A DNA stretch of 30,995 nucleotides from Verrucomicrobiia bacterium. GTDB taxonomy: Bacteria; Verrucomicrobiota; Verrucomicrobiia; Limisphaerales; DATENK01. Positions 2,655-23,674 of this stretch are shown piece after piece (positions within the stretch are counted from its first letter, which is position 1; every line of letters begins with the position of its first letter). The position numbers and the translations under genes were made by a program. Where the stretch lies: positions 1 to 30,995 of the forward strand of contig DATENK010000718.1 of assembly GCA_035275085.1 (NCBI GenBank). Direction: 5' to 3'. Under the pieces are notes generated by a model. The model worked only from the letters and a program-made list of their open reading frames with translations. It made no database searches and was not told the DNA's origin.

Positions 2655-4772
2655 TCATGAAAACGCCACTTTGGTGGTCGCCGCTTCCGGATCCCAATTT
2701 CGCAGCGGCTTGCTGCTGACGGTGGCGATTTCCTTGATGGAAAGCTGGTTCCCGCGGGCCTTGGCCCCTTTGACCCCGAGCTCGGAAGGTTTGCAGGTTT
2801 GTTGGTAAATTTTCTGGTGCGGCGCGGGCTTGTACCGAATGTACAACTCGGCCGACGTGTCCGGCTCGAACAACAGAATGCGCGATTTTTCCGGGATGCA
2901 GAAATACTCCTTGTTCATAATTGTCCCACCGAAAGTGAATCGCTTCAGGTAATTGGCGTCGCGATTTGTATAAACGAGCGTGAACACGCGTTCGCGTTCG
3001 GGGAGTCCGCAATAGACCAAATCCGGGCCCACGAACAATTTCTCGGGCAATTCAGTCACGCGATACCGCCCGTCTTTCGATACCAAAATCAACTTATCGA
3101 AACGCGAACAATCGATCTTGAATTCTTCGCCTGACACTTTGTGCCCCACGTAACCGGACTCGCGGTCATACGCCACCTTGAAAGTTTTGAACGCGACCTC
3201 TTTCGCTTCCACTTCATCGAATCGGCTCGATTTGGTGAGACGCGGATATAGAGGACCGTAGGTCTCAAGCAAGCGTTCCAGATGGTTAATGACGTACTTC
3301 GTGAGGTTCTTCAGGTTCTTGCGCGTCTCCGCCAGGTCCCCCTTTGTCTTCTCCATTTCCTCGCGGTGCTTGTTGATATCGAACAGCGATATGCGACGAA
3401 TCCTGACCGTCAGCAGTCGATCGACATCCGCATCAATCAATTCGCGCAGCAACTCTTTCTTGAAGGGCTTGAAACCTTCGTGCACTGCCGCGATGACCGA
3501 TTCATTGGTGCGGCATTGCTCGATCTTCTTGTAAATGCGCTCTTCGATGAAGATGCGTTCCAATGTGCGGAAATGCAGTTCGTCCTGGAGCTTCTTTTCC
3601 TTGAGCTCGAGTTCACGCTTGAGCAACGCGACAAGCTGCTCCGTGTTTTCCTTCAGCACTTCGGAGACAGTCATCTCCACCGGTCGGTTATTTTTGATGA
3701 GAATGATCCGGCTCGCGATTGTGACTTCGCAATCCGTGAACGCGTACAGCGCGTCCACCAGTTGCTCCGCTTCCACGCCTGGCGGCGCCTTTACCTCGAT
3801 CTCCACGTCCTCCGACGTGAAATCGTTCACGCTGCGCACCTTGATCTTTCCTTTCCGCGCGGCATCTTCAATCGAAGCCATCAACGAATCCGTGGTGGTC
3901 GTTGGCGGAATCTCTTTAATCGCGACGGTGAAGCCGTCCTTGATCTTGATTTTCGCACGCATCCGAATCGTGCCCTTGCCGTCGGCATAACCGCGCGCGT
4001 CCATTAGCCCGCCGGTGAAGAAATCGGGCAGCACCTTGAATGGCTCCTTCTTCAGGATGTTGATTTGCGCCTGAAGCAACTCAGGGAAATTGTGCGGAAG
4101 AATTTTCGCCGACAAGCCCACCGCGATCCCTTCCGTCCCAAGCATTAAGAGCAACGGTAATTTGCTCGGCAGCGTCACCGGCTCCTTCTTGCTGCCATCG
4201 TATGTCGGAATGAACTCGGTGATTTCGTCGTTGAACAGCTCGTTGCGCGCGAGATCAGTCAGCCGGCATTCGATGTATCGCGGCGCAGCCGGCACATCGC
4301 CCGTGTAAATATTACCGAAGTTCCCTTGTCCTTCGATCAGGTAACGCTTGTTCGCGAGCACCACCAGGGCATCGCCAATCGATGCATCCCCATGCGGATG
4401 ATACTTCATCGATTCGCCGACGACGTTCGCCACTTTGATGAACCGACCCTCGTCCATCGTATGCAAGGCCCACAGGATGCGTCGCTGCACCGGCTTAAGC
4501 CCGTCCTCCAGCGTGGGGATCGCGCGGTCCCGAATTACGTACGACGCATATTCCAAAAAGCTGCGGTTGACCCGCCCATGCAACGGCAACTCAATTCTGT
4601 TTGGCTTGAATGGCTTGCGCTCCGCTTCCGTTGGCACCGCCTCGGCCTGCACATGCATCTCGCCATTGCCGTTCTTTCCGGGCTTACCGGGTTTTGCCGG
4701 CTTGGCAGCCTCCGGCTTGGCGGGTTCGATCGGGGGTTGAGCTTTTGCTGATTCCTTTTTCTTTGCGCTCAT
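2655..4772 (-). CDS. parC: DNA topoisomerase IV subunit A (type IIA, short-CTD ParC type)
   Basis: DGLKPVQRRIL, YHPHGDASI, AAPRYIE with the catalytic Tyr, and GIAVG. I see no GyrA-box, and the CTD is short. Confidence 0.88.
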   Translation of the reverse strand: MSAKKKESAKAQPPIEPAKPEAAKPAKPGKPGKNGNGEMHVQAEAVPTEAERKPFKPNRIELPLHGRVNRSFLEYASYVIRDRAIPTLEDGLKPVQRRILWALHTMDEGRFIKVANVVGESMKYHPHGDASIGDALVVLANKRYLIEGQGNFGNIYTGDVPAAPRYIECRLTDLARNELFNDEITEFIPTYDGSKKEPVTLPSKLPLLLMLGTEGIAVGLSAKILPHNFPELLQAQINILKKEPFKVLPDFFTGGLMDARGYADGKGTIRMRAKIKIKDGFTVAIKEIPPTTTTDSLMASIEDAARKGKIKVRSVNDFTSEDVEIEVKAPPGVEAEQLVDALYAFTDCEVTIASRIILIKNNRPVEMTVSEVLKENTEQLVALLKRELELKEKKLQDELHFRTLERIFIEERIYKKIEQCRTNESVIAAVHEGFKPFKKELLRELIDADVDRLLTVRIRRISLFDINKHREEMEKTKGDLAETRKNLKNLTKYVINHLERLLETYGPLYPRLTKSSRFDEVEAKEVAFKTFKVAYDRESGYVGHKVSGEEFKIDCSRFDKLILVSKDGRYRVTELPEKLFVGPDLVYCGLPERERVFTLVYTNRDANYLKRFTFGGTIMNKEYFCIPEKSRILLFEPDTSAELYIRYKPAPHQKIYQQTCKPSELGVKGAKARGNQLSIKEIATVSSKPLRNWDPEAATTKVAFS

Positions 4773-4789
4773 CTCTAACTCGGCCCGAG

Positions 4790-4817
4790 AAGGTACGAAA
4801 TGGGCCGCTCAATGCAA
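4790..4817 (-). promoter_or_regulatory. Putative sigma70 promoter for parC, TTGCAT-16-TACCTT
   Basis: Minus-strand hexamers at 4812-4817 and 4790-4795, 17 nt upstream of ATG 4772. A separate promoter is needed because parC is not contiguous with parE. Confidence 0.4.
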
Positions 4818-4942
4818 GCTGCCGATTGCCACTGGGACCGTAACGTTAAATTTTGTTAATCTCGTCCGCAAAGTCCCCTGAACGGCAAGAACCTTCAATA
4901 TTGAATCCATTCCCTCATGCATGGTGTGCTTCACAGAATCAG

Positions 4943-7204
4943 ATGTATCCGTTTGTCCGTTTAGTCGTTTTGGGTTTTTGCCTTCTTGAGACCGTAGCCT
5001 CCAACGCAAACGCCGACGCAGGTTACCAGTCGCCCGGTACCAAACGCATGGCCGAGCGCCTCCAGCAATGGCATCGCGAGTTCGGAGAGCGTAACGCCTA
5101 TGAGAATCGCGCCAGGGTCAAAGAGTTGCAGGCCGAGCTGCCCCAAGCGCGTGAGGTTTCGCGGCGGATCGCCATGCAGTATGAACTCGCGCTGGAACAG
5201 TTGAACCTAGGTGATCCGGAAGCAACGCTCACGACGCTCACCAACCTCAATCGCGAAGCTCGGGCCGCCCGCGTTCGCATCAGTGTGACCGATCGCCGTG
5301 ACATACGGCTCCTCGAGGGCCTGGCGTACCTTCGTCTAGGCGAATTGGAGAACTGCGTGCACCATCACAATCCTGAGTCCTGCCTGCTGCCGATTCGCGG
5401 CGCCGGCGAGCACCTCCAAAGGCGGGGCGCGGAGAATGCCGAAATGATTTTTCGCGAACTAGCCGAGCAAAAAACCAACGATCTCGGCGCGCGGTGGCTC
5501 CTGAACCTTTCTGCCATGACGCTCGGAAAATATCCGGCCGAGGTGCCTGCGTCCTTAAGAATCCCGGAGTCGGTCTTTGAATCGGAAGCGCCCTTCCCAA
5601 AATTTGCTGAGATGGGCACTCGCCTGGGATTGGGGGAAAACGCGCTTGCGGGAGGGACCCTTACCGAAGACTTCGACGGCGACGGCTTGGTCGACGTGTT
5701 TCTGTCGAAATGGAACACGGTCGGGCAGTGTGCACTTTACCGAAATCTTGGGAACGGGCACTTCATCGATATCACCCGCAAAGCCGGTTTGGAAGGCGTC
5801 ACGGGCGGCTTGAACATTATGCAGGCCGATTACAACAACGACGGATACATGGATGTCTACGTAGTCCGCGGCGCATGGCTGGGTGAAATGGGATTGATCC
5901 CGGATTCGCTCTTGCGGAACAACGGCGATGGGACGTTTGACGATGTAACCGAGGAAACGGGCTTGCTTTCGATGCACCCTGCGCTTTCCGCCACCTGGTT
6001 TGATGCAAATAACGATGGTTGGATCGATCTTTTCGTCGGCAACGAAACCACTACTCCCGAGTTTCCACATCCCTGCCAATTATTTATAAATCAGCGCAAC
6101 GGGACATTTAAAGAGGCAGCTCAGCCGGCCAATGCGGCAATCGTCGGATTCGTGCGCGGAGTAAGCGCAGGCGACTTCGACAATGATGGACGTCCCGACT
6201 TGTACATCTCGCGCCTGAACCAGGAGAACATCCTGTTGCACAACGAAAGCACGGTCGACCGCGTCCGGTTCACCGATGTCACCGCTCAGTTCGGCGTGGC
6301 CGAGCCGCGGATGAGCTTTCCGACGTGGTTTTGGGACTACAATAACGATGGGTGGCTGGACATCTGGGTTTCCGGGTACGGGGACGCGCCGCGGGGTTGG
6401 TACAGCGCAACTCTTTCGCATGTCACACTGGGCGAATGGGTGGCCGACAAACTCGGTTTACCGAGCAAAGCTGAGACGTTTCGGCTTTATCGTAATGATC
6501 GTGGCCATTTCACCGATGTGACACGCGCGGCCAATCTGAAGAAGTCTGTGCTTGCGATGAGCGCGAACTTTGGCGACCTAGACAACGACGGCTACCTTGA
6601 TTTTTACACCGGCACTGGCGCGCCTTCGTATGGCAGCCTGGTTCCGAATGAAATGTTCCGGAACGACGGTGGGTCCACGTTTAAGAACATCACGACTGCG
6701 GGGGGATTCGGCCATTTGCAGAAAGGACATGCGATCGCTTTTGCCGATCTGAACAATGACGGCGCGCAGGAGGTCGTCGTGAATGTGGGTGGTGGATACG
6801 CAGGCGATACCTTCTATGACGCGCTGTTTGTGAATCCGGGAACGACAAATTCATGGGTGTCGCTGAAGTTCGTTGGCAAACAATCGAATCGCGCGGCGAT
6901 TGGCACGCGCGTCAAAGTAGTGGCGTCCGCCAAAGGCGCTGCGCGGGAGATACATCGTGTTGTCGGTTCCGGCGGCAGCTTCGGTTCTTCCCCCTTAAGG
7001 CAGGACATCGGCCTCGGACAGTGCGACAAAATCGAGCGGGTCGAAGTCTGGTGGCCGGCCTCGGGTCAGACGAATGTGCTGACCTCCTTAAAGCCGAGTC
7101 AGTTCTACGAAATCACTGAAGGTAAAACGGAGGCGCGCCTGCTCGCACCGCATCGTTTCGCATGGCCAAACCCGAAAGCCGATGACGAATCAACCTCTGA
7201 GTAG
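4943..7204 (+). CDS. Secreted CRTAC1-family protein: N-terminal helical/TPR-like region, FG-GAP-like repeats, C-terminal ASPIC/UnbV domain
   Basis: Signal-like MYPFVRLVVLGFCLL (ATG 4943 preferred over 4853). About 7 DxDNDGxxD repeats. SNRAAIGTRV...GGSFGSSPLRQDIGLG...IERVEVWWP ASPIC signature. Confidence 0.88.
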   Translation: MYPFVRLVVLGFCLLETVASNANADAGYQSPGTKRMAERLQQWHREFGERNAYENRARVKELQAELPQAREVSRRIAMQYELALEQLNLGDPEATLTTLTNLNREARAARVRISVTDRRDIRLLEGLAYLRLGELENCVHHHNPESCLLPIRGAGEHLQRRGAENAEMIFRELAEQKTNDLGARWLLNLSAMTLGKYPAEVPASLRIPESVFESEAPFPKFAEMGTRLGLGENALAGGTLTEDFDGDGLVDVFLSKWNTVGQCALYRNLGNGHFIDITRKAGLEGVTGGLNIMQADYNNDGYMDVYVVRGAWLGEMGLIPDSLLRNNGDGTFDDVTEETGLLSMHPALSATWFDANNDGWIDLFVGNETTTPEFPHPCQLFINQRNGTFKEAAQPANAAIVGFVRGVSAGDFDNDGRPDLYISRLNQENILLHNESTVDRVRFTDVTAQFGVAEPRMSFPTWFWDYNNDGWLDIWVSGYGDAPRGWYSATLSHVTLGEWVADKLGLPSKAETFRLYRNDRGHFTDVTRAANLKKSVLAMSANFGDLDNDGYLDFYTGTGAPSYGSLVPNEMFRNDGGSTFKNITTAGGFGHLQKGHAIAFADLNNDGAQEVVVNVGGGYAGDTFYDALFVNPGTTNSWVSLKFVGKQSNRAAIGTRVKVVASAKGAAREIHRVVGSGGSFGSSPLRQDIGLGQCDKIERVEVWWPASGQTNVLTSLKPSQFYEITEGKTEARLLAPHRFAWPNPKADDESTSE

Positions 7205-7278
7205 CCGTTGACTTAGGCTTCGTTTCGGCGCAGAGGCTTCCTGGGTGGTCCCAACTGGATGACCGCCCCCCCCAGGGG

Positions 7279-7381
7279 GCGTCAGAAGGCGTCAGGGTGA
7301 CAGGTGGCCTGTAAACATTGGTCAAAAGTGGTGTTTTAGAAGTGACAGGTGGGCGACAGGTACGACCTTGTACCCGACAGG
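7279..7381. repeat. Array of short direct repeats (GYGWCAGG-like) flanking an AT-richer spacer
   Basis: GCGTCAG 7279, GCGTCAGG 7289, GTGACAGG 7297, GTGACAGG 7342, GCGACAGG 7353, CCGACAGG 7374. GTGACAGGTGG is an exact 11-mer at 7297 and 7342. Confidence 0.7.
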
Positions 7382-7389
7382 AGCCGCCT

Positions 7390-9222
7390 TCAGTCTTCTA
7401 CCGGGACAACGAGATTTTCCATGATGTAGTCCTTGCGTTCCGGGGTGTTCTTGCCCATGTAGAACGTGAGAATGTCCGCGGCTTCGAGCTTGGCGGCGAA
7501 CTCGACCTGGCTGAGGCGCATGTCGGGGCCGATAAACTGTTTGAATTCTTTCGGGGAGATTTCGCCGAGCCCTTTGAATCGGGTGACTTCGCATTTCGCG
7601 CCGAGTTTCTTCATGGCATCGTCACGTTCGGCTTCGGAATAGCAATAGATGGTCTGTTCTTTTGTGCGCACGCGGAACAGGGGCGTTTCCAGCACGTAGA
7701 GATGTCCATCATGGACGAGATGATCGAAAAAGCGGAAGAAATAAGTAATTAACAAATTTCGAATGTGGAGCCCGTCCACGTCGGCGTCCGTTGCCAGAAT
7801 CACCTTCTCATAACGCAAATGCTCGATGTTGTCCTCGATATCAAGCGCGCGCATCAAATTGTACATCTCATCGTTTTTGTAAACGATGTCGCGCTTGAGG
7901 TCCCAGACATTGAGGGGCTTGCCCTTGAGGACGAAGATGGCCTGTGTGTTCACATCCCGGCAACTCACGATCGACCCGGCGGCGGATTGGCCTTCGCAGA
8001 GGAACACCATCGAGCCTTTGCCGGTGTTCTTCTTTTTGTCGAAATGCACTTTGCAATCCTTAAGCTGCGGGATGCGGATGGTGATAGCTTTGGCGCGCTC
8101 GCGGGCGAGTTTTTTGACCTCCTGCAATTCCTTGCGGAGCTGCCGGCTGTCCTCGGCTTTCGCCATGATCTTCTGCGCGATGTCTTTGTTGCGATTGAAG
8201 AAGGTCAGCAACTCCTCGCGAACTTTGTTAACGAGATCGGACCGGATTTCGGTATTCCCTAATTTATTTTTGGTTTGCGATTCGAAGACCGGATCTTTCA
8301 GGCGAATCGAGACGGCGCCGACCATCGCTTCGCGCACGTCATCGCCTTCGTAGCCGCCCTTGGAATATTCGTTCACCGCTTTAAGCAAACCCTCACGGAA
8401 CGCGCTCAGGTGCGTGCCGCCATCGGCCGTATATTGGCCGTTGACGAACGAATAAAATGTTTCGCCATAACGGCTGTTGCTGTGTGTGAAGCAGAATTCG
8501 AGCGTCTTGCTGGCATAATGCAGCGGCGCGTAAATGGGTTCGCTGCCGTCCGCGTGCAAGTCTTCCATCACCAGGTCGAGCAGGCCGTGGCGCGATTGGA
8601 AGGTCTTGCCATTGAAAACCAGCTTCAGACCCGTGTTCAGGTAAGCATAATGGCGTAGCCGGCGCTCGACGAACTCCGGCTTGAACTGCACTTCCTTGAA
8701 AATCTCGGGATCGGGCTCGAATTCGATGAAGGTGCCATCAGGTTCATTGGCGGCCTTGCCATTTTTCTCACCCTTCAGCCGGCCCTGCTTAAACGCCGCT
8801 TCGACGTACTCACCGGTGCGATGGCTACGGACGATGAATTTGTGCGAAAGCGCGTTTACGGCCTTGGTGCCGACGCCGTTAAGGCCGACGCTGAATTGAA
8901 AAACTTCGTCGTTATATTTGGCGCCGGTGTTAATTTTCGAGACACAATCGATCACTTTGCCGAGCGGAATGCCGCGGCCGAAATCCCGCACGGAGACGCG
9001 ATTGTTATCGATGCTGATCTGCACTTCCTTGCCATGGCCCATGATGTATTCGTCGATCGCGTTGTCGATGACCTCCTTCAGCAGGATGTAACAGCCATCG
9101 TCGTAGTGCGATCCATCGCCAATGCGCCCGATGTACATGCCGGTGCGCAGCCGGATGTGTTCCAGGGAGGACAGTGTCTTGATTTTGCTCTCGTCGTAGA
9201 TGTGTTTCGTCGAATCCGCCAT
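7390..9222 (-). CDS. parE: DNA topoisomerase IV subunit B
   Basis: HIRLRTGMYIG, EVIDNAIDE (GHKL ATPase), DFGRGIP, GLNGVG, Toprim EGQSA / KGKPLN / DADVDG, RFKGLGEI and MGKNTPERKDYI. Start set at ATG 9222 (MADSTKHIYD). Confidence 0.9.
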   Translation of the reverse strand: MADSTKHIYDESKIKTLSSLEHIRLRTGMYIGRIGDGSHYDDGCYILLKEVIDNAIDEYIMGHGKEVQISIDNNRVSVRDFGRGIPLGKVIDCVSKINTGAKYNDEVFQFSVGLNGVGTKAVNALSHKFIVRSHRTGEYVEAAFKQGRLKGEKNGKAANEPDGTFIEFEPDPEIFKEVQFKPEFVERRLRHYAYLNTGLKLVFNGKTFQSRHGLLDLVMEDLHADGSEPIYAPLHYASKTLEFCFTHSNSRYGETFYSFVNGQYTADGGTHLSAFREGLLKAVNEYSKGGYEGDDVREAMVGAVSIRLKDPVFESQTKNKLGNTEIRSDLVNKVREELLTFFNRNKDIAQKIMAKAEDSRQLRKELQEVKKLARERAKAITIRIPQLKDCKVHFDKKKNTGKGSMVFLCEGQSAAGSIVSCRDVNTQAIFVLKGKPLNVWDLKRDIVYKNDEMYNLMRALDIEDNIEHLRYEKVILATDADVDGLHIRNLLITYFFRFFDHLVHDGHLYVLETPLFRVRTKEQTIYCYSEAERDDAMKKLGAKCEVTRFKGLGEISPKEFKQFIGPDMRLSQVEFAAKLEAADILTFYMGKNTPERKDYIMENLVVPVED

Positions 9223-9313
9223 AAGCTCTTGGGCCCTTAATATTCGAGTGATAAGAGCAACTTGCAAACCGAAAACAGGATTTTAATACAAGAGAGGGGC
9301 TCGGCGTTCGCCT

Positions 9314-10306: not shown

Positions 10307-12462
10307 ATCCGAGCGGGGCATTCTGGTGGGATTTGTTTGGGCGGCTCATCCTCGAGTCTTCGGCGCTGATCACGTTGGCCGCGCTCGTAAGCCGAAAATT
10401 GCTGCCGCAGCAACAGCGGCTCGTGTGGCAGGTCGCACTCGGCGCGCTTCTGTTGGTGCTGGCTGTGGAAGGCACTGGATTGCATCAGCGCATCCACTTC
10501 CCCTCGGTGCAAGTACAACCTGCACCAACAGCGCGCCGCCTGACCATCGAAGTGATGCCTGGTCCGGCGATCAGCCTGCCCACCGCAGCGCAACCCTTTG
10601 GCGTACAGCAGCCTTCTTTAGTGCGATGGCTTCCAGGCGTCCTTTGGCTGGTAGTGTGTGCCTGCATTCTCACTCGCAGCTTTGGAAGTCGCTTGCTCTT
10701 CCTTGCCCTAGCGCATCGTCGCCGCCGCTTGAACGAGCCCACGCTCCAGGAGAAAGTCGAAGCGCTCGCCCGCAAAATGAATCTTCACGGCCGCGTGCAT
10801 CTAAGCGAAAGCCGCCTGTTGGCCGGCCCAATTGCGTTTGGTTTTTTTCGGCGATGCATTTGCCTGCCGGAAGGTTTCGCGCGGGCGTACGCGTCGCAGG
10901 AACAGGAAGTCACGCTCGCCCACGAATTGGCCCACCTGGCCGCAGGCGACCCGCTCTGGTACGCCCTTGTGGACATCATCGCAGCCGTGTTCTGGTTCAA
11001 TCCACTCGCCTGGCTCGGACGCGCGCAATTTCAAGTCGCTTGTGAAACGGCCGCCGACGAGGCGAGCTTGCTCGTGTGCGAAGACGGTGCGCGCACGCTC
11101 GCCGAATGTCTCGTGCAACTCGGCAAGCGCATGGCGCAAGTGAATTCTTACGGCTGGATCGGCATCGAAGGGAACCGATTCCGCTCAGCGCTCGGACGTC
11201 GCGTGACGCGTTTACTGAAGCTTGAGCCAAGGCCATGGCGCGCGTTATCACCGAGATGGACAATCGCGGCGTGGTTCGCGGGCGTCATAATCTCCATCGC
11301 GCTGCTCTCATCGAGCGCCGCTGTTGCGCGCGGACGCGGCTATTCATTGTCCGATCTGCTGGGGCAACTGCGTTTCGCTGGAGGTCGCGTGCCAAATGTC
11401 CAGGCAGCGCCAACCGTCACCGTCACTGGAGGCCGGGCGGTCGGCACTCGAACTTTCAAAGTTGACCCACCGCGTTTCGAACAATCCATAAAAGAGTTTG
11501 TCGAGAAAAACCAAATCCCACCGGGCGACTCTTTCACGCATGATTTAAGATTCTTCATCGAATCGCTCGGAGTGGACCTGACGCCGCCAGCAAGGTTCTT
11601 TTACAATTCACAGCTGGGGACCTTAATGGTCCGCGCGGACGTCGCAACGTTGGATAGTTTGGAAAAGGCCGTCCAACTCATGAACGCGTCGCCCCCGCAA
11701 CTGACGATCGAAACGAAATTTGTGGAAATGAGTGATCCGCTTGAGGCGCTGGACCTGCGCAATCTTGCGATTAGCTGGGATGAACACGGCTCGAATTCAT
11801 TTCGCGGAGTCCTGTCGCCGTCCAGGTATCGCGAATTGATGAAGTGGTTGGAAGCGCGGTCGGGTGTGGACATCCTGACCGCGCCGAGGGTTACCACGCT
11901 CAGCGGCCGGCAGGCGCAAATCAAAGTCGTTGATGTGAGATACGTCGTAACGGACCTCGACTACGAGGTCGCGCCGGCTAAGCCAATCGCCGAACCATTC
12001 GAATGCGGTCCGGTGTTGGATGTCATCGGCACCGTGCGCCTCGACGGGATGACGATTGACCTGACGCTCATTACCACCGTCCGCGAGTTCATGGGATATG
12101 ACTTGAAGATGCCATATTTTGATTCAGGACCGCCCAGGCCACTGACGCCCGCACCGCTGCGCGAATATGCGGGTGAGAATGCAAATGCGAACACTTCCGC
12201 GAGCCCAGTGCTCGGCCAGAAAATTCCGCTGCCGGTGTTTCGGCTGCGCCAGGCACAAACAAAAACTCCCGTCTGGGACGGGCAAACGGTAGTGCTCGGT
12301 TTACCGGTAAGTGCGGGCCGTTCCGCGAAACCGAACCTGAGATTCGCGCGCTCGGGCAAAAGATGCTTCCTGTTAGTTACGCCGGTTCTGATCGATCCCG
12401 CTGGGAATGCGTTGCACAATGAATCGACGCTGCCATTCGTCGAACAGACCGTGCCGCGTTAA
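10303..12462 (+). CDS. BlaR1/MecR1 (peptidase M56) membrane zinc protease fused to an N3 plus secretin-like domain
   Basis: ATGA overlap with the blaI-like stop. M56 motifs GPIAFG, LAHELAH (10915-10935), FWFNPLAW and CETAAD, then a TM helix. Secretin-like motifs follow: YNSQLGTLMVRA, PQLTIETKFVE, LTAPRVTTLSGRQAQI, PVFRLRQAQT, DGQTVVLG and LLVTPVLID. Confidence 0.85.
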   Translation: MNPSGAFWWDLFGRLILESSALITLAALVSRKLLPQQQRLVWQVALGALLLVLAVEGTGLHQRIHFPSVQVQPAPTARRLTIEVMPGPAISLPTAAQPFGVQQPSLVRWLPGVLWLVVCACILTRSFGSRLLFLALAHRRRRLNEPTLQEKVEALARKMNLHGRVHLSESRLLAGPIAFGFFRRCICLPEGFARAYASQEQEVTLAHELAHLAAGDPLWYALVDIIAAVFWFNPLAWLGRAQFQVACETAADEASLLVCEDGARTLAECLVQLGKRMAQVNSYGWIGIEGNRFRSALGRRVTRLLKLEPRPWRALSPRWTIAAWFAGVIISIALLSSSAAVARGRGYSLSDLLGQLRFAGGRVPNVQAAPTVTVTGGRAVGTRTFKVDPPRFEQSIKEFVEKNQIPPGDSFTHDLRFFIESLGVDLTPPARFFYNSQLGTLMVRADVATLDSLEKAVQLMNASPPQLTIETKFVEMSDPLEALDLRNLAISWDEHGSNSFRGVLSPSRYRELMKWLEARSGVDILTAPRVTTLSGRQAQIKVVDVRYVVTDLDYEVAPAKPIAEPFECGPVLDVIGTVRLDGMTIDLTLITTVREFMGYDLKMPYFDSGPPRPLTPAPLREYAGENANANTSASPVLGQKIPLPVFRLRQAQTKTPVWDGQTVVLGLPVSAGRSAKPNLRFARSGKRCFLLVTPVLIDPAGNALHNESTLPFVEQTVPR

Positions 12463-23558: not shown

Positions 23559-23583
23559 GCTCTGCAGGACACCCCCGAAATAA

Positions 23584-23674
23584 CCGTTACACCGTTACAT
23601 TAACGATAAAGCCTAAGGAATTGGGAAAAGTATCCGTTACAACAACTGTTACATGTAACGGTTAAACCGTTACA
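23584..23674. repeat. CCGTTACA octamer array (5 direct copies, 1 inverted) flanking an AT-rich spacer
   Basis: CCGTTACA at 23584, 23592, 23634 and 23667, CTGTTACA at 23646, inverted TGTAACGG at 23654. Perfect inverted repeat TGTAACGGTT-A-AACCGTTACA (23654-23674). Confidence 0.85.

Follow-up and report, generated by a model that had tools for sequence, protein, structure and literature searches.

What are the short arrays of direct repeats that lie between converging genes in this Verrucomicrobiia bacterium, and do two of them with different repeat words belong together? The DNA analysed here (the window) is a stretch of 30,995 nt, contig C718 of an 84%-complete genome of 816 contigs and 4.98 Mb from a rhizosphere metagenome. 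It contains two such modules. Module 1 ends 8 nt from the stop codon (7390-7392) of a parE-like gene, and module 2, whose first unit starts at 23584, abuts the stop codon (23675) of a multi-haem cytochrome c gene, so that the closeness to minus-strand stop codons reported by the initial annotation is real (8 nt and 0 nt). The annotation took module 1 for a second iteron-like module. Our searches with BLAST and iterated nhmmer show that it is a full-length member of a dispersed family, A, which has at least 52 copies in the genome. Module 2 belongs to family B, with at least 38 copies (29 at first), including a subfamily with GTTAACA units.

Architecture of the two modules

The octamers, the 37-nt spacer and the unit positions originally given for module 1 are as described when the sequence is read directly, and the same holds for the match of its layout to that of module 2 (Table 1). 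Two parts had been overlooked, the unit GCGTCAGA at 7279-7286 and the G/C hairpin at 7261-7283. On the left, conservation stops at the hairpin, both in the alignment of 52 copies and in the flank logo; one A subfamily has a T-run after the hairpin, which resembles an intrinsic terminator. Unit starts in the left array of module 1 are 10 and 8 nt apart, while those in the right array recur about every 11 nt up to the right end of the element at 7381. Outside the units, the best-conserved part of A is the first 15-20 nt of the spacer (CCTGTAAACATTGG...), which also recurs in A-type elements of other Verrucomicrobiota. A possible short stem in the A spacer (AAACAT/GTGTTT) is 85% paired, without compensatory change. 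At least one subfamily of A clearly has four tandem 11-mers as its right half, the third of them degenerate. A degenerate inverted copy, CCTTGTAC, had been proposed here; at the level of the family there is no consistent inverted copy at this place, and one subfamily shows a clear degenerate direct 11-mer instead.

Table 1 Coordinates of the module 1 region, its neighbouring genes and the family B element of the window.
Feature	Position	Strand	Details and basis
parC	2655-4772	-	
FG-GAP/ASPIC gene	4853-7204	+	Pfam
G/C hairpin, family A 5' end (G-run/C-run/G-run)	7261-7283	+	direct reading; local hairpin in fold
Module 1, left unit array	7279-7304	+	GCGTCAGA 7279-7286; GCGTCAGG 7289-7296; GTGACAGG 7297-7304
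Family A spacer, 37 nt	7305-7341	+	conserved core CCTGTAAACATTGG 7308-7321
Module 1, right unit array	7342-7381	+	GTGACAGG 7342-7349; GCGACAGG 7353-7360; degenerate 11-mer 7361-7373; CCGACAGG 7374-7381
parE/gyrB-type topoisomerase subunit gene	7390-9267	-	Pfam DNA_gyraseB, Toprim, DNA_gyraseB_C
Family B element (module 2)	23559-23674	+	leader 23559-23583; tandem CCGTTACA x2 23584-23599; 34-nt spacer
Family B element, right part		+	units 23634, 23646; inverted unit 23654-23661; unit 23667-23674

The match of module 1 extends over the complete A profile, and its closest paralogues are 85-87% identical to it. Its units read GTCAGA, GTCAGG and then four times GACAGG, with a GACAGG-type spacer, and thus mix two subfamilies. 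From its sequence, it looks like a chimera of these subfamilies rather than a decayed copy.

Module 2 is 83% identical to its closest paralogue, and the B element to which it belongs takes up the entire gap between two convergent stop codons. The left end of the family is formed by a leader (GGGCACCCC..GGAAAAA) that ends in CCGGAAAAA. In module 2, 4 nt separate the units at 23634 and 23646, and 5 nt separate the inverted unit from the last unit. Unit and inverted unit make up a perfect palindrome, and on the minus strand B places an 8-bp hairpin right after the cytochrome stop codon.

Both families follow one plan of five or six evenly phased units per copy, in which two to three units at 8-10-nt spacing and three to four units at about one helical turn (a right period of 11-12 nt), all in direct orientation, flank a core of 34-37 nt. 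Unit starts are (10), 8, 45, 11 and 21-22 nt apart in A and 8, 41-42, 11-12 and 20-21 nt apart in B, where the inverted unit sits between the last two direct units; the layout common to the about 90 copies is 8, 41-45, 11-12 and 20-22 nt. A scan for layout only (the same 7-mer at offset 8, again at 36-55 and again at 9-14) returned 93 sites in the genome versus 19 in a shuffled genome. Each clear element among them is an A or a B copy, and the remainder resembles the shuffle background. The probability that a random five-unit layout of equal span comes as close to A as B does is 2.6e-4 by per-gap tolerances and 1.5e-3 by total distance, both post hoc values. Together with the scan and the copy number, they place the matched spacing beyond chance. 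Outside this genome, the A layout is found exactly (9, 45, 11, 21) in L129, a metagenomic relative in which the word is a different one (CCGGTAAG), and approximately in four copies of another Verrucomicrobiota genome of the same order.

The spacers tell a different story from the layout. The motif TAA..ATTGG..AAAAGT was said to be common to both modules. When the spacers of modules 1 and 2 are compared with shuffles, their top-scoring local alignment has p = 0.074, the family consensus spacers of A and B give p = 0.29 and 0.99, and the profile HMMs of A and B do not detect each other's members above shuffled sequence. Searched genome-wide, the motif occurs in the two window copies only, and looser forms are noise. 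ATTGG is found in just two B copies, and AAAAGT is private to the window copies; position 7324 within it is A in module 1 and G in 12 other contigs of the source run. The proposal of a dispersed family that keeps its geometry while the word varies therefore stands for at least 52 A and at least 38 B copies, and the part of it that has the spacer kept between modules falls, the A and B spacers not being detectably similar. With spacer alignments at chance level and no cross-match between HMMs, A and B have a common design and no detectable sequence kinship.

Copies, unit words and orthologous sites

The roughly 90 A and B elements lie on about 80 contigs. Both families are non-coding, with copies of about 100-125 nt, a median pairwise identity of about 0.6 and some near-identical subfamilies; the near-identity of nine GTGTCAAT-type copies implies recent spread. 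The contig depth of the source run is 43 on both modules versus about 7, the extra depth at the modules being due to paralogues, and none of the contigs of this run has a joint that skips either module. Nearly all copies are intergenic, and many lie within 0-30 nt of both flanking genes. On crude longest-ORF gene calls, 20 of the 42 A copies with both neighbours called occupy convergent gaps, compared with 20% of all gaps (p = 7e-5), and 8 of 30 B copies do so, which is not significant (p = 0.26). Neither family shows an orientation bias relative to neighbouring genes. Clusters occur as well: on four contigs A lies beside B, pairs of A-A and of B-B stand in tandem, and repeats of other types are found in the same gaps.

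The elements are polar and have sharp left and right limits, a hairpin (A) or leader (B) on the left and a direct unit on the right. Terminal inverted repeats were found in neither family. There is no target-site duplication, the flank logos carry no information outside the elements, and a comparison of filled and empty versions of the gap that holds module 2 shows no duplicated bases. No part of the window matches Rfam 15 at gathering score.

Unit words tend to be alike within a copy and differ between copies. The majority word in A copies is GTCAGG (27), GACAGG (14) or GTTAGG (3), and B uses words of at least eight types (GTTACA, GCTACA, TGTACA, GTCACA, GGCACA, GTAACA, TTAACA and others); mixed-word copies exist, module 1 among them. 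The likeness of units within a copy is 0.81 (A) and 0.83 (B), versus 0.75 and 0.73 for the same slot across copies, a likeness that 2000 slot shuffles never attained, although the shuffle ignores the relatedness of copies and so describes subfamily structure rather than a probability. Within subfamilies, identity is 90-94% in the units, 76-85% in the core, 72% in the rest of the spacer and 62-67% in the linkers. The inverted unit of B follows the direct ones: 82-85% of its cells complement those of the direct units on either side (27-54% in slid controls), and 27-28 cells carry double changes, spread across five of eight positions, a level reached in none of 500 shuffles. The same B words occur with both spacer classes (GCTACA two and three times, GTCACA once and twice), so words and spacers are not simply co-inherited.

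Filled and empty sites can be compared among relatives at both loci of the window. In the nearest relative found (L031; ParE 92% identical, about 84% at the nucleotide level), parE and parC are adjacent, about 10 nt apart, and the junction holds neither the FG-GAP gene nor an A element. The two genes are held apart by the FG-GAP gene and the A element in the present genome only, and none of 80 metagenome parE loci has an A or B copy within 3 kb of parE. Judged from this gene order, module 1 together with the FG-GAP gene is an insertion into a parE-parC pair. Between contig C221 and L021, synteny is broken at both ends, and the genome that holds L021 contains just a few contigs from a relative.

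The convergent pair of bPH_2 and cytochrome genes around module 2 is kept in six relatives. Two of them (L125, L126; cytochrome 77% identical) have a B element at the same locus, with the word CTGTTACA where the window has CCGTTACA, at the three direct units and the inverted unit. Only 0-4 nt separate the stop codons in three others (L127, L128 and the P0005 contig; cytochrome 73%, 69% and 66%), and in L129 (cytochrome 66%) the gap holds an A-type element in the opposite orientation. With the window included, three lineages have B in this gap, one has a reversed A and three have 0-4 nt. At this orthologous locus the unit word apparently switched in place. Four-fold sites of the cytochrome gene are saturated between lineages (38-45% identity), and the orthologous B copies are 80-82% identical, like nearby promoter-bearing gaps. 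Given the saturation, B has either been constrained in place or been renewed by conversion from paralogues, or else the gap is a repeated target. These comparisons do not support the suggestion that module 1 is the more degenerate and perhaps the older of the two. Its match spans the whole profile, its junction is empty in the nearest relative, and it is module 2 that is common to lineages whose cytochrome is only 77% identical.

The elements are rare beyond this genome. A scan of one genome per species for the exact A core plus unit gave only two true matches. Sequence-only models applied to 150 other genomes across the same order found A-type copies in five (1-4 scored in each) and B, weakly, in one, which makes six of 151 genomes for A and two of 151 for B when the present one is counted.

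Likeness to known elements and the search for a partner

A and B are small, non-coding, multi-copy elements (about 90 copies) with filled and empty sites among relatives. They resemble the REP, BIME and REPIN elements that accompany RAYT in E. coli and Pseudomonas, which are likewise short, non-coding and present in high copy number, occupy intergenic positions at gene 3' ends and in convergent gaps, form mosaic clusters and leave no target duplication (PMC3733652, PMC3337134). Species-specific sequence classes and possible DNA-level roles in the host, through gyrase or IHF binding, are further points of likeness. The structure, however, is different. The basis of a REP or REPIN is an imperfect palindrome of 20-40 nt that bears an unpaired GTAG or CGTC tag and often comes in inverted doublets, whereas A and B are polar and carry direct phased 8-mers around a core; a single inverted unit is found only in B and RNAalifold gives no consensus hairpin, and we rejected an assignment of either family to REP/REPIN. 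The Y1/RAYT-like genes of this genome (C792, C379) are flanked by different hairpin repeats of their own. Without inverted ends or duplications, A and B are not MITEs in the strict sense either.

Other modular intergenic repeats made of short tandem words, such as the mosaic elements of Neisseria (NIME), BOX and STRR-type arrays, are comparable in kind. Geobacter metallireducens has sites of four tandem octanucleotides or five heptanucleotides in dozens of copies, with no known function (PMC2700814). There, arrays are paired on opposite strands at variable distance, in contrast to the fixed bipartite layout, conserved core, single strand and switching word of A and B. The ends of TIRYT, TIR-flanked Y1 transposase genes (PMC3733652), are inverted repeats, unlike those of A and B; in the present genome such a Y1 gene is fused to a DnaA-type HTH.

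Octamer-armed cassettes with a PF05635 gene (23S_rRNA_IVP, 'GxxExxY') also occur in this genome (C752:2891-3358, C495:816-1304). Their arms are inverted, use the unrelated words TTCCAAG and CCCCAAA and can form one long hairpin around the gene or loop, whereas the arrays of A and B are gene-less and co-oriented around a core, and A and B were accordingly not classed with them. The literature searched contained no description of a bipartite phased-array repeat design. The broad kind, an interspersed intergenic repeat, is known; apparently new in A and B are the bipartite co-oriented phased arrays, the conserved core and the word that switches between subfamilies.

In the 84%-complete assembly, no gene for a partner or binding protein of A or B was identified. 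A search for an autonomous form found no gene within any copy; partial profile matches all lie at contig ends, and unit clusters outside the elements are only deletion derivatives. No neighbour or mobile-element gene recurs beside the copies, whose neighbours belong to ordinary paralogue families. The assembly has five tyrosine recombinases and no serine recombinase, IS110 or RepB-type gene and no Rep_OBD match; a search for IS91 returned nothing here, as it did in all 14 control genomes, and so says little about this assembly.

The only candidate is a fusion of a Y1 nuclease with a DnaA-type helix-turn-helix (C481:1740-2792), which has its own 27-nt inverted ends. These consist of three tandem 7-8-mers ending in ACA, and in the C481 copy GTCACA and TTAACA boxes are followed by TTAT, which by eye resembles the left end of B. 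Gene-less pairs of such ends are present on C671 and C470. A profile of the ends matched neither A nor B and does not support the kinship that the resemblance suggests. Homologues of the fusion are found in 82 of 151 genomes of the order, with up to 15 copies, a distribution that does not track A or B. Because of this distribution and the missing profile match, we regard the fusion as a lead only. It would fit a scheme in which A and B form a new class of non-autonomous elements, their 8-mer boxes being read by the HTH and their core cut by an HUH/Y1 nuclease such as this one. Box words would then define specificity groups, arrays would be homogenised via a junction or circular intermediate that joins left and right, and insertion would be directed between convergent stop codons; in this specific form the scheme is unlikely.

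Possible roles of the elements

Our comparative data are best read as pointing to a new form of the REP/BIME kind, in which A and B would be repeats that bind protein at the level of DNA. They would act as double-stranded DNA, the phased units offering multiple sites on one helix face to one oligomeric protein that would also engage the core. Multi-site platforms of like design are used by Rep proteins on iterons, by ParR on parC, by integrases on arm sites and by transposases on subterminal sites. Copies would spread in trans, and the enzyme responsible would have to work without inverted ends, for example an HUH/Y1 nuclease or site-specific recombinase. They would persist mainly in tiny gaps after stop codons, where they may be harmless or useful. 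Within a copy, the unit word would be uniform because all sites must fit the same partner. We favour the view that the elements are trans-mobilised and non-autonomous, with units that are binding sites, at about even odds. It is plausible that the word variants are cognate protein-DNA specificity variants, as first proposed, although the at least 13 unit words of one genome would need either many partners or a tolerant partner combined with a homogenising process.

Long-term conservation in situ at the orthologous cytochrome site suits a selfish element no better than it suits a function in the host. By their size, their core with periodic arms and the convergent enrichment of A, the elements may be BIME-like host elements and candidate sites for gyrase, IHF or a nucleoid protein. 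The main alternative, a tentative one, is an architectural or topological site comparable to BIME-2, a strong gyrase site, with the core as the central site of the enzyme. The phased arms would provide helically periodic bendability for wrapping, and the site would relieve supercoils between convergent genes, so that the periodicity would matter and the word would not. The E. coli gyrase motif has a centre from -16 to +19 and periodic flanks to about +/-65, and BIME-2 elements are strong gyrase sites independent of transcription (PMC6379681); A and B are similar to this motif in their length of 110-125 nt and in having a centre of 34-37 nt between two periodic arms. The topological alternative would also account for many words without many partner proteins, and it agrees with the position of A in convergent gaps, the lack of orientation bias, a geometry common to A and B in the absence of common sequence, and the retention of B in situ across saturated divergence. 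However, the period of the left arm is 8-10 nt and not 10.5 nt, B is not enriched in convergent gaps, and bendability requires neither matching words on the left and right nor an exact inverted copy in B. The rarity or absence of the elements in most genomes of the order further argues against a general requirement for such a site.

The position directly after stop codons could also point to an element of the 3' UTR that acts as RNA and would terminate transcripts, protect them from exonucleases or, through its repeated words, serve as a sponge for an RNA-binding protein. The 5' G/C hairpin of A with the T-run of one subfamily, and the covarying arms of the minus-strand hairpin that B places behind the cytochrome gene, would suit this idea. 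Yet direct repeats cannot pair with one another, RNAalifold finds no consensus fold on either strand, and folding z-scores of -1.7 to +0.1 are not better than those of shuffles, leaving local hairpins only. Neither module has a match to a terminator consensus, and an Rfam match is lacking. Since, in addition, the elements show no orientation bias towards flanking genes, we consider a role as RNA quite unlikely. A sigma-70 promoter scan was negative for both modules, and by eye they contain no convincing sigma-54, ECF or IHF consensus.

In pMV158-type rolling-circle origins, in geminivirus and circovirus iterons and in R1 parC, two sets of short direct repeats flank a core. The repeats of the pMV158-type double-strand origin and of geminiviruses follow the specificity of Rep, and the nick region stays constant. 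A and B are like such origins and centromeres in their right period of about 11 bp, varying word and fixed core, and two proximal repeats, a hairpin-capable core and three to four repeats at about 11 nt recall the pMV158-type origin and geminivirus iterons in particular. The elements could thus be recombination or replication sites left by integrated small replicons, either res- or att-like or comparable to a rolling-circle origin with a nick-site hairpin; the palindrome of unit and inverted unit in B is of the kind seen in crossover sites. Of the readings considered, this one comes nearest to the iteron-like module of the initial annotation. Against this, units are only 6-8 nt long, no adjacent gene recurs, and no Rep or Par gene is linked to the copies, nor is any gene for a Rep_OBD or IS91-type protein, a serine recombinase or an additional integrase. 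Active recombination sites at about 90 chromosomal places, in both orientations, would be a hazard. Searches of 72,556 plasmids and of the viral contigs in IMG/VR gave no match to either family, and with the copy number and the missing Rep gene this makes a plasmid-type iteron function, and the recombination- or replication-site reading as a whole, very unlikely. A chance likeness of two unrelated repeat-rich intergenic stretches would suffice for the spacer motif alone, but for the elements it is refuted by the copy number and fixed layout (about 90 copies, 93 versus 19 sites, P of about 3e-4 to 1.5e-3), and its probability is practically nil.

Short interspersed repeats rank with the least understood components of bacterial genomes, and to our knowledge almost nothing is known about them outside the proteobacteria. 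In annotation, modules of this kind should not be read as plasmid origins or as regulatory operators of neighbouring genes. They raise the questions of what reads the units, what keeps them uniform and whether converging genes make use of them as spacers or topological sites. One and the same convergent gap of 0-4 nt has received an independent insertion of each family, and the switch of a binding-site-like word, combined with a layout common to two families without sequence similarity and with conservation across saturated neutral divergence, makes this an unusually clean case.

Y1 and PF05635 genes with flanking repeats

Two Y1 genes of the genome, one IS200-like and the other RAYT-like, are each enclosed by their own classical hairpin repeats (ACACCCCGC..GCGGGGTGT on contig C792 and GGAGTTCCGCC..GGCGG on contig C379). 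They are REPtron-like units and bear no relation to family A, the ~125-nt intergenic repeat, or to family B, the second intergenic repeat of like layout. A further Y1 gene, on contig C481, encodes a protein with a RAYT-like Y1 nuclease domain at its N-terminus and a DnaA-type helix-turn-helix at its C-terminus, and is bracketed by 27-nt inverted ends (GGGGTCACATCTTAACATTATACA). Homologues that have conserved ends are present in 82 of 151 genomes from this order, with at most 15 per genome, and the same type of end pair is also present without the gene. Inverted arrays of tandem 7-8-mers, of the TTCCAAG type and the CCCCAAA/CACCAAG type, enclose each of two PF05635 (23S_rRNA_IVP) genes.

Location of repeat-associated genes and of variant repeat copies in the genome that contains the window (G000)
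Feature	Contig and position	Locus
Y1 + DnaA-type helix-turn-helix protein, 350 aa	C481:1673-2796	L018/L215
End pair of the C481 type without gene	C671:4378-4637	
End pair of the C481 type without gene	C470:9386-9516	
Y1 gene, IS200-like	C792:3752-4204	L017
Y1 gene, RAYT-like	C379:9953-10561	L019
PF05635 gene	C752:2891-3358	L120
PF05635 gene	C495:816-1304	L121
Left flank of A copy with ATTAGG/ATTAAG run (example)	C423:~5000-5040	
Left flank of A copy with ATTAGG/ATTAAG run (example)	C132:~11350-11390	
Left flank of A copy with ATTAGG/ATTAAG run (example)	C563	
Left flank of A copy with ATTAGG/ATTAAG run (example)	C22	
Short family A form	C104:~7070-7130	
Short family A form	C608:11720-11790	
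B-B dimer	C81:6125-6344	
B-B dimer	C409:5587-5783	
Phased GGAAGGT-type array adjoining B copy	C250:1660-1790	

Variant copies and neighbours of families A and B

Two short forms of family A still have their hairpin, left units and last unit but are missing the spacer with its core; they look like deletions between direct repeats. One B-B dimer, in which a CTGTTACA-type copy without its last unit is followed by a CCGTCACA-type copy, is found at two loci with ~80% identity, and the composite was apparently copied as a single unit.

Tandem hexamer runs (ATTAGG/ATTAAG) lie immediately 5' of about six A copies, and tandem heptamers (TGATGAC) precede the A-like copies of another genome of the order (G041, loci L112-L114). 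Such runs may represent an additional mosaic module. One B copy adjoins a further phased array, made of ~10 words of the GGAAGGT type spaced by ~11-12 nt, which resembles arrays of the CACGAAGG type.

Genome G024 contains a stretch of 21 nt identical to the family A core (CCTGTAAACATTGGCTGGAAT; L179:1505-1534), which directly adjoins a tRNA-Ser(GGA) gene at its 3' end. No A units accompany this stretch, but two GCTTACA words lie upstream.

A and B elements stand side by side on a 4.9-kb contig labelled as part of a Bryobacteraceae MAG (DASRHX010000268.1), which shares 82.6% identity over 1.6 kb with contig C221 of our genome. Because the remainder of its 7.4-Mb bin holds almost no A/B-type repeats, this contig probably stems from a Verrucomicrobiota genome and was mis-binned.

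Separation of parE and parC

In L031, the nearest relative found, the two topoisomerase IV genes, parE and parC, lie next to each other with ~10 nt between them. In the window (2655-9267) they are separated by a 2.6-kb insertion, consisting of an FG-GAP/ASPIC gene in opposite orientation and an A element. Since the insertion split the pair, parC must have gained its own promoter, in the 80-nt gap at 4773-4852.
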